Virus record (IMG/VR): IMGVR_UViG_3300037424_001256
Span: 1 to 64,000 of that record
Source: a virus
Taxonomy: Duplodnaviria; Caudoviricetes
Reading direction: 5' to 3' (one strand)
Length of the DNA: 64,000 nucleotides
The notes beneath the pieces are model-generated. The model saw nothing but the letters and a program-made list of their open reading frames with translations. It made no database searches and had not been told where the DNA came from. A program made the translations under genes and the position numbers. This document shows, piece after piece, positions 13,727 to 15,210 of the stretch. How positions within the stretch are numbered: position 1 is the first letter of the stretch; every line of letters begins with the position of its first letter.

Positions 13727-13848
13727 AGTGAGCCAATGAAAATGATTATACCCGTTGAGAGATAGCGAGCCAAAGCCCTTGATTTATCAAAAATTCCGAG
13801 TGAGTCAAGAATACCGATTTCTCATATGTTCAGATCGAGCCAAACACA

Positions 13849-13880
13849 GTCGCACCATTGATTAGTGCGTGGATTGAAAT
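13849..13880 (+). CRISPR. solitary type I-C-like CRISPR repeat inside array D
   Basis: GTCGCACCATTGATTAGTGCGTGGATTGAAAT: GTCGC start, GCAC/GTGC hairpin, GTGGATTGAAAT tail. Confidence 0.8.
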
Positions 13881-15069
13881 AGATCGAGCCACGAACATAG
13901 ATTAAGCATTTTACGAGAGCGAGTCAAGAACGCTGATTATTTCAGACGAAGCGAACGAGTCAAGGTTTCCAATAGCACCGAAGTAAGGGATCGAGACAAG
14001 GTTTCCGAGTGTACCGAAATTAGGGATCGAGACATGATAACCGATAAATCGTAAATAATGATCGAGCCAAGAATACTGATAGTACCTTATTACGAGAGTG
14101 AGCCAGCTGCGTTGAGACACCCAATGTAGAGAAGCGAGCCATTAACAATGAGACTACCAAGTTAGAGAAGTGAGCCAATTATTAGGATTGCATCACCGTT
14201 AGGGAGTGAATCAAGTTTATTGAGGACACCGAAAACGATGAGTGAACCAAGCTTTCCGATAGTATCAGAACAGATGAGTGAACCGCAAGATAAAATAGCA
14301 CCATATTTTTGGAGTGATCCACATAAACGGAATGAATTAATATAACTGAGTGAATCATCTATTAGGATTAGCGTCAAACCATTTAAGTGAGCCAGAGAAT
14401 TAGAAATTCATTGTATGCAAGCGAGCCAAAAACCTTAGACAATATCAAACCCCAAGAGTGATCCATTGCCCAGTATAGCGCCGTAATAAGTGAGAGAGCC
14501 GATTAAATGGATTGTAGCATATTGAGGAAGCGAGCCACTAGGAACGATAGCGCCAAGAACTCAGATTGAACCATGTTGCTGGATAAACCAAAGTCTCTGA
14601 ATGAACCATCAAATGGGAATATTTCAATCTCTTGAAGTGATCCATTCGGTACGATAGGACCATGTACAGTGAGTGAGTCAATCGTGTCTGAGGGTACCAT
14701 TGCCGGGAACGAGCCAACCAAAGCGATAGAGCATCAAGAAAGAGCGAGTCAACGCACAAGATTATATCATTAACAAAGAATGAACCAATGGGACGGAGAG
14801 CACCACAAACCATTAGTGAGCCACAAAGATTGATTAGGCCATCTCTATTGAGTGAGCCAGCGCCAATGACAGCAACATTACCATAGATCGAGCCATCGGG
14901 GAGAAGAGTACCAGTCGGTTAGAAGCGAACCACCACCAATGATAGTATCACTGCCTTAGAATGAACCATTGAACTTGATAGTACCATATCCGCAGAATGA
15001 GTCATCAAGGCCGAGAACACCGTCAAGCATAAGCGATCCAACTGTATCTGATTATCCACTATATACACT

Positions 15070-15101
15070 GTCGTTCCCCATCGTGGGAGCGTGGATTGAA
15101 A
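15070..15101 (+). CRISPR. second solitary type I-C-like CRISPR repeat inside array D
   Basis: GTCGTTCCCCATCGTGGGAGCGTGGATTGAAA: GTTCCC/GGGAGC hairpin and the same 3' tail. Confidence 0.8.
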
Positions 15102-15210
15102 ACCAATAGTCGTGAGAGATCCGTGAACATAGAGACTACCACTACGGAAGAGTGATCCATACCATGAGAGAGCACCAGTACCGCAGAGTTAAAAATCACC
15201 CCTTGATTAG

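Follow-up and report, generated by a model that had tools for sequence, protein, structure and literature searches.

How a virus that carries guide arrays of its own comes to hold, inside one of them, single repeats of type I-C CRISPR, and what such repeats may do there, is the question raised by this locus. The RNA-guided TIGR-Tas systems have been described only recently, and what they naturally do in phages is unclear. A first-pass annotation of the letters had pointed to two solitary type I-C repeats lying in the same orientation in a TIGR-like array, and had offered two interpretations: either the phage uses host Cas5c to process its guide transcript, or it co-expresses RNA anti-CRISPR (Racr) decoys from it. 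The window, i.e. the whole stretch of 64,000 nucleotides analysed here, covers bases 1-64000 of an 88,032-bp IMG/VR virus record (complete per CheckV), which originates from a sediment metagenome and has a GC content of 36.6%.

The phage and its TIGR arrays

The array that carries the repeats (array D, Table 1) consists of units in which an edge repeat (consensus AGTGAGCCA), a spacer of 8-9 nt, a loop repeat resembling GATAGTACCA and a spacer of 9 nt follow each other. This layout is the dual-repeat TIGR architecture (PMC12045711): edge and loop repeats alternate, the spacers are ~9 nt long, the units measure 36 nt, and both a Tas gene and a terminator are present. The 5′ start of the array is the stop codon of a 64-aa open reading frame. 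Further TIGR arrays are found at 1-400, ~12750, ~13430-13510 and 27460-27710 of the window and, beyond it, at 76.6 kb and 86.8-88.0 kb of the record. Unlike those of the dual-repeat TIGR-Tas systems in the literature (PMC12045711; 10.64898/2026.09.09.750476), the arrays are scattered over at least six loci and lie far from tas, at distances of up to 26 kb.

Table 1. Features of array D and associated elements (window positions, unless the record is named)
Feature	Position	Strand	Details
TIGR dual-repeat array D	13727..15187	+	~39 units of 36 nt; carries both I-C repeats
TTC (type I-C PAM)	13829..13831	+	directly precedes AGATCGAGCCACGAAC... in the insertion-free ancestral arrangement
Edge repeat, variant AGATCGAGCCA	13832..13842	+	upstream of repeat 1
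AACACA	13843..13848	+	6-nt segment inserted along with repeat 1, on its 5′ side; absent from the arrays of the relatives
Solitary type I-C CRISPR repeat 1	13849..13880	+	GTCGCACCATTGATTAGTGCGTGGATTGAAAT, 32 nt
Edge repeat, variant AGATCGAGCCA	13881..13891	+	abuts the 3′ end of repeat 1; opens the unit CGAACATAG..., which is homologous in G002
47-nt insertion with repeat 2	15059..15105	+	CTATATACACT + repeat + CCA; the unit lacks the insertion in G001-G004
Solitary type I-C CRISPR repeat 2	15070..15102	+	GTCGTTCCCCATCGTGGGAGCGTGGATTGAAAA, 33 nt
Spacer B of the interrupted guide unit	15106..15114	+	ATAGTCGTG; conserved in all five related phages
Likely terminator of the array D transcript	15190..15253	+	inverted repeat with 22-nt arms, then a T run
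Likely tas gene	record 75497-76564 (L004:1498-2565), outside the window		355 aa; structure matches

The product of the likely tas gene matches PDB entry 9mty (E 1e-11) and TasH (E 5e-7). It gave no match to Pfam Nop, and a search of its C-terminal piece against PDB returned nothing useful; as the protein is without a recognisable nuclease domain, it is called TasA-like here. Upstream of tas lie a gene for a ParA-like ATPase and a 90-aa open reading frame, and directly downstream lies the short array at 76.6 kb. With this ParA-like gene beside tas, the phage looks like a partition-type phage-plasmid. Among cultured phages the array has no DNA match, and the matches of the portal are only distant.

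Two Phd/YefM-like antitoxin paralogues are encoded at 15244-15459 of the window and at L004:3102-3308 (47% identical over 51 aa). Each of them is located just 3′ of a TIGR array, with no toxin partner among the nearby listed open reading frames. Between a divergent methyltransferase operon and the first array fragment, positions 12273-12630 of the window display dense AT-rich direct and inverted repeats (TTGTTTATATATAAG-like, with periods of 16, 24 and 32), which may be iterons or operators. The TIGR spacers have not even a 7-mer in common with the two I-C repeats, and hence the arrays are not aimed at I-C repeats.

Identity of the two type I-C repeats

A search of positions 11500-16500 against Rfam at E up to 1 returned no CRISPR-DR family. 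Since the CRISPR-DR models of Rfam are too short, they were replaced by a covariance model of our own, built from 39 distinct natural I-C repeats and searched against 460 kb of sequence from seven related phage records. Exactly three strong matches were obtained, namely repeat 2 (36.3 bits), repeat 1 (36.0 bits) and a repeat in a relative (38.1 bits). Repeats 1 and 2 reach E ~1e-5 in the 460 kb, the best unrelated match scores 14.7 bits, and no further such element occurs in the 88,032-bp record. The claim of two equally oriented I-C repeats in a TIGR array is thereby borne out, as are the coordinates given for repeat 1, while repeat 2 extends one nucleotide further than had been annotated.

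Both repeats fit the 23 fixed positions of their subfamilies and have the conserved I-C ends (GTCG at the start and GTGGATTGAAA(T/C) at the end), except that the final base of repeat 2 is A, not T/C. I-C repeats are laid out as a 2-nt 5′ overhang, a stem of seven pairs, a loop of ~5 nt and an 11-nt 3′ tail (PMC8524198). Repeat 1 is arranged as 2-7-5-7-11, with the stem CGCACCA/UAGUGCG, a 5-nt loop and the tail UGGAUUGAAAU; repeat 2 is arranged as 2-7-6-7-11, with a 6-nt loop and the tail UGGAUUGAAAA. The stem of repeat 1 contains one C.A mismatch beside the loop, so that its sense hairpin is weak (-5.5 kcal/mol, z -0.55), and its antisense hairpin is the stronger one. The stem of repeat 2 contains one G.U wobble, which pairs only in sense RNA, and the repeat folds at -10.6 kcal/mol. 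Recognition by Cas5c depends on the base of the stem, the UGG after the cut site and the 3′ tail (PMC8524198). All three are kept in both repeats, the deviations being confined to the vicinity of the loop or to the G.U wobble, and comparison with the published layout (PMC8524198) predicts Cas5c cuts at 13869/13870 (repeat 1) and 15091/15092 (repeat 2).

Both elements are solitary by SRUfinder-like criteria, being single full-length mimics on a mobile element, non-coding and with no flanking partial repeat, and both run in the sense orientation of the array. Within 150 nt of either, no partial or degenerate repeat was detected, the best flank alignments being at or below array background. Homologues of cas5, cas7 and cas1 are absent from the 88,032-bp record, in agreement with the earlier statement that there are no cas genes. 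Repeats of a type I-C locus are arrayed with spacers of 33-37 nt beside cas genes; solitary and without these genes, the present elements are repeat-derived and do not constitute a CRISPR locus.

Insertion sites and related phages

Compared with the relative G002, repeat 1 together with AACACA and one edge repeat forms an extra unit of 49 nt between homologous units. The exact copies of AGATCGAGCCA at 13832 and 13881 had been taken as a duplication flanking the repeat. The copies are there, but the same sequence also occurs at 14885; it is therefore an edge-repeat variant, and a target-site duplication is rejected, the flanks being ordinary edge repeats. Likewise, ACAC(A/T) does precede both repeats, as had been remarked, but the match amounts to 4-5 nt, is not recurrent (it is absent before the G004 repeat described below and in the natural leaders examined) and is given no weight.

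The insertion with repeat 2 is placed between the loop repeat GATTATCCA (15050-15058) and spacer B. It is flanked by the 3-nt repeat CCA, which still precedes spacer B after the insertion. The 3′ end of repeat 2 (GATTGAAAACCA) occupies the position of a loop repeat and is followed by ATAGTCGT(G) and an edge, just as the first-pass annotation had described. The interrupted guide unit (spacer A xxTATCT) is conserved in all five phages, most other units being different, and this conservation suggests that its putative target is under shared selection.

An assembly chimera was considered and rejected: the insertions are 38-47 nt long and lie inside a continuous array, and the phenomenon recurs in an independent sample. 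In two sediment runs, the Logan contigs break up across array D, with 15044-15137 not covered; no RNA run is listed as containing the stretch. A promoter directly upstream or an acr gene within 1 kb often, though not necessarily, accompanies solitary repeat units. Directly upstream of the present repeats there is no convincing promoter, and no strong promoter is adjacent to them. No recognised acr gene is adjacent either, and the neighbouring small open reading frames are without an annotated family except for the Phd-like antitoxin. A weak promoter-like site at 13874-13903 (TTGAAA, 18 nt, TAGATT; 9 of 12 positions) starts in the tail of repeat 1, and an analogous TTGAAA site lies 3′ of a hairpin element in G004; both are probably due to chance.

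Four relatives (G001-G004) encode Tas proteins 72-79% identical to this one and carry homologous arrays with spacers in common. The annotation had proposed to look for the same insertions in related arrays. G001, G002 and G003 have no I-C repeat anywhere in their sequences within the 460 kb searched with the model. G004 (IMGVR_UViG_3300025000_002059) holds a third, different full-length I-C repeat, GTCGCACCTCATTTCTGGTGCGTGGATTGAAAC, at 59404-59436. This repeat is located inside the homologous array, antisense to the TIGR units, and adjoins units homologous to positions 13985-14060 of the window. I-C repeats are thus found three times in the homologues of array D, in two of the five related phages, and nowhere else in the 460 kb; they are the only irregular units of these arrays that have a strong hairpin. 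Each of the three differs in sequence and position, and both orientations are represented within this one array family, which makes them three independent insertions. The orientations (two sense, one antisense) show no bias, and with three close relatives lacking insertions there is no conservation to argue for selection. Searches for more relatives with the 64-aa open reading frame and a DnaD-like protein returned only copies of the known relatives or unrelated phages.

The hairpin element of G004 is a further irregular unit at G004:59840-59874 (L199:5840-5874), which reads GTCATGAC...GTCGTG followed by GGGATTGAAAC and interrupts the loop of a guide; spacer B of this guide is conserved in G002. 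The match of the element to the I-C model is limited to its GGATTGAAAC tail (12 bits). Either it is a degenerate fourth repeat or the resemblance is coincidental, and it was left out of the count of repeats.

Possible roles and probable capture of the repeats

Solitary CRISPR repeats of phages are a recently validated class of RNA anti-CRISPRs (PMC10651486). RacrIC1, a solitary repeat of type I-C, inhibits I-C immunity, and 83% of solitary repeats in prophages match the subtype of their host (PMC10651486). As the class is known and includes a working I-C RNA anti-CRISPR (PMC10651486), we tentatively take a decoy role as the best single reading of the present repeats, at a confidence that stays short of an even chance: they may be captured solitary repeats of Racr type, transcribed together with the pre-tigRNA. 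This is the half of the earlier interpretation that we retain. That the repeats are scars of recombination is a close rival, and the two do not exclude each other.

As decoys, the repeats might work as follows. They were probably captured from a host CRISPR array, as units that reached the TIGR array through recombination with CRISPR DNA of the host, either illegitimate or guided by a spacer. A long pre-tigRNA that begins upstream of array D and ends at the terminator (15190-15253) would carry both repeats in sense, and each would fold there into an I-C hairpin with an 11-nt tail. Cleavage that depends on Tas has been documented within edge repeats (PMC12045711, PMC13421893). If the neighbouring guides are cut in their edges, repeat 1, which lies between two intact edge repeats, is expected to come free as an RNA of its own, ~49 nt long. 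Repeat 2 would form part of an RNA of ~83 nt, still joined to the spacers of the conserved guide. Host Cas5c may then bind, and would probably cut, these mimics, by which Cascade subunits could be drawn into non-productive complexes; the two different repeat sequences might cover two I-C variants. In favour of a decoy role stand the I-C-like scores, the retained determinants of Cas5c recognition, the sense orientation, the solitary and non-coding state, the lack of cas genes, the presence of Tas and the restriction of I-C repeats to array D homologues within the 460 kb. Against it stand the lack of a matching array for repeat 1, the weak sense hairpin of that repeat, the absence of the insertions from three close relatives, and the lack of a convincing promoter or a recognised acr gene next to the repeats. 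Moreover, the antisense repeat of G004 weakens the idea that co-transcription is the point.

The search for a matching array covered 185,579 species genomes and 241 million metagenome records with exact and relaxed patterns, and none was found for repeat 1. For repeat 2, the scan yielded one gut contig (L077) with a genuinely arrayed repeat three substitutions away; this contig is GC-rich and implausible as the host of a sediment phage with 37% GC. Scans for repeats of the same subfamilies gave 26, 28 and 67 viral contigs, many of them with solitary copies or mini-arrays; the 67 came from the scan with the GTCGCACC...GGTGCG subfamily. Among all these contigs, only G004 has its repeat in a TIGR context.

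RacrIC1 resembles the present elements in being a single repeat mimic of type I-C, non-coding, with hairpin and tail and without cas genes, and it is bicistronic with acrIC5, to which a possible co-transcription with other elements would correspond here (PMC10651486). Unlike RacrIC1, however, the repeats described here lie inside a TIGR guide array and not beside an acr gene or a promoter of their own, two different repeats share one array, their release would need processing by Tas, and their function is putative. Should the repeats be decoys, TIGR arrays would serve to express and process RNAs for counter-defence, and I-C systems would be predicted in the hosts that these phages infect.

A somewhat less probable account, possible although we favour it less than a decoy role, assigns the repeats no RNA role at all and regards them as recombination scars or footprints of PAM escape. 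Host I-C spacers would have been acquired from array D, and recombination or template switching with the host CRISPR array at such a spacer would have copied the upstream repeat into the phage. The 3′ end of the repeat would thereby replace the PAM and spare the protospacer, and such events would survive only in DNA that tolerates insertions, like a TIGR array. The PAM of type I-C is 5′-TTC (10.1101/2022.06.15.496202). In the insertion-free arrangement, TTC stood before the sequence that is now 3′ of repeat 1 (AGATCGAGCCACGAAC...), and the 3′ end of the G004 repeat abuts GATC... at a place where the reverse-complemented edge reads CTC (G000) or TTC (G002). As background, TTC precedes 0.8% of the sense positions in the array, and TTC/YTC precedes 3-8% of the antisense positions. 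At least two PAM junctions out of three would arise by chance with a probability of ~0.002, a post hoc value, the test having been framed after repeat 1. This pattern is explained without any RNA function and hence counts against decoys. An origin as scars also covers both orientations, the exact full-length repeats, the TIGR-like flanks, the three positions and the absence of the repeats from close relatives. It explains the antisense copy, this absence and the PAM junctions equally well or better.

Microhomology is available for such events. About 9% of the ordinary loop repeats in these phages start with GATTG, and one reads GATTGAAACA; the I-C tail consequently shares up to 9 nt with TIGR loops. 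Spacers and protospacers are known to recombine (work of Varble 2019 and Watson 2018, cited in PMC8616872): homology of spacer and target drives exchanges that join CRISPR repeats to phage DNA, similar to what is proposed here. The products in those reports are transducing hybrids and not viable phages with a repeat in place of the PAM, and in the present case the exchange is read from the junctions alone. On the other hand, repeat 2 does not fit, as no TTC precedes its downstream flank in this lineage. For none of the three repeats does the upstream flank offer a PAM at the distance of a spacer; a spacer can thus have guided one junction per event at most. In the I-C arrays examined there is no spacer matching these phages; this includes 41 spacers from arrays of the 67 contigs, searched against the five phages. 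A scan for the I-C tail followed by GAGCCA gave, among the matches listed, only chance matches. This account also concerns the origin of the repeats and is compatible with a later function as decoys. If the repeats are scars, they would be traces, left in nature, of recombination between phages and host CRISPR arrays in which the PAM is lost. We know of no documented route by which phages escape through PAM-removing recombination with host CRISPR arrays.

An extension of the decoy role, which we consider unlikely, is that the TIGR array serves as a scaffold for the expression and processing of RNA anti-CRISPRs. In this reading, Tas would cut the flanking edges and free a discrete I-C decoy of ~49 nt (repeat 1); repeat 2 would act as a hairpin extension in the loop of a conserved tigRNA, yielding a chimeric RNA that is held by Tas and presents a handle to Cas5c or Cascade; and an antisense copy in relatives would give rise to an anti-repeat RNA against host pre-crRNA. 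If this were true, an RNA-guided system of a phage would be directly coupled to counter-defence against the RNA-guided system of its host.

It is improbable that the repeats act as DNA or as antisense RNA, i.e. as patches of homology through which the phage would recombine with host CRISPR arrays or integrate into them, or as anti-repeat RNA against pre-crRNA. The G004 repeat indeed runs against the transcript of its array, the minus strand of repeat 1 gives the better fold, and integration through solitary repeats has been proposed (PMC10651486, PMC8616872). Yet both copies in the window are sense, 13-32 nt of homology is short, and the phage, with a ParA-like gene beside tas, resembles a phage-plasmid of the partition type. 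We know of no precedent for anti-repeat RNAs directed at type I systems.

Still less probable is that each repeat heads a hijacked guide, of the mini-array or Cracr kind, that redirects host Cascade to a competitor phage or a cas promoter. Viral mini-arrays and Cracr RNAs of type I-C exist (10.1101/2024.10.29.618823, PMC6858448), and I-C mini-arrays are numerous in gut phage contigs. They resemble the present case in that a virus carries repeats of host type, exploits host Cas proteins and may multiplex against subtype variants (PMC6858448; 10.1101/2024.10.29.618823). However, they consist of a repeat, a spacer and a second, often degenerate repeat. Since no second or degenerate repeat lies within 150 nt of either element here, and what would be the spacers downstream are TIGR units of the phage itself, this proposal fails. 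Finally, processing of the TIGR transcript by host Cas5c, the other half of the earlier interpretation, is hardly credible: Cas5c is expected to cut both repeats (PMC8524198), but its site is present in only two of ~39 units and in none of the homologous arrays of G001-G003, and in dual-repeat systems Tas is reported to carry out guide processing itself (PMC12045711, PMC13421893), for which the Y-x6-H spacing kept in the C-terminal loop of the present Tas and invariant in three homologues may be relevant, so that a role of Cas5c in guide processing is unsupported.

As a kind of element, solitary I-C repeats are known; their recurrent residence in TIGR arrays is new. Related viruses of phage-plasmid-like character have acquired them in homologous TIGR arrays on three separate occasions. 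The two publications on TIGR systems consulted, Faure et al. 2025 (PMC12045711) and Xu et al. 2026 (10.64898/2026.09.09.750476), mention neither CRISPR or solitary repeats nor anti-CRISPR in TIGR arrays, and literature searches found no report that links solitary CRISPR repeats or RNA anti-CRISPRs with TIGR arrays, which agrees with the first-pass remark that no such combination had been described.

Two minor observations concern the viral contigs retrieved. At least 17 GC-rich gut viral contigs (L005, L007, L009-L011, L013, L015, L017, L018, L021, L022, L025-L030) share one conserved I-C mini-array, which is composed of a degenerate repeat, a 35-nt spacer (AATATCRCACACTGTTRCCAATGTCGTATACCCATA) and a full repeat. 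A viral contig with the shared DnaD-like replication protein carries a four-repeat I-C array, GTCGCGCCCCGCAAGGGGCGCGTGGATTGAAAC, at L044:5300-5550 on the minus strand.
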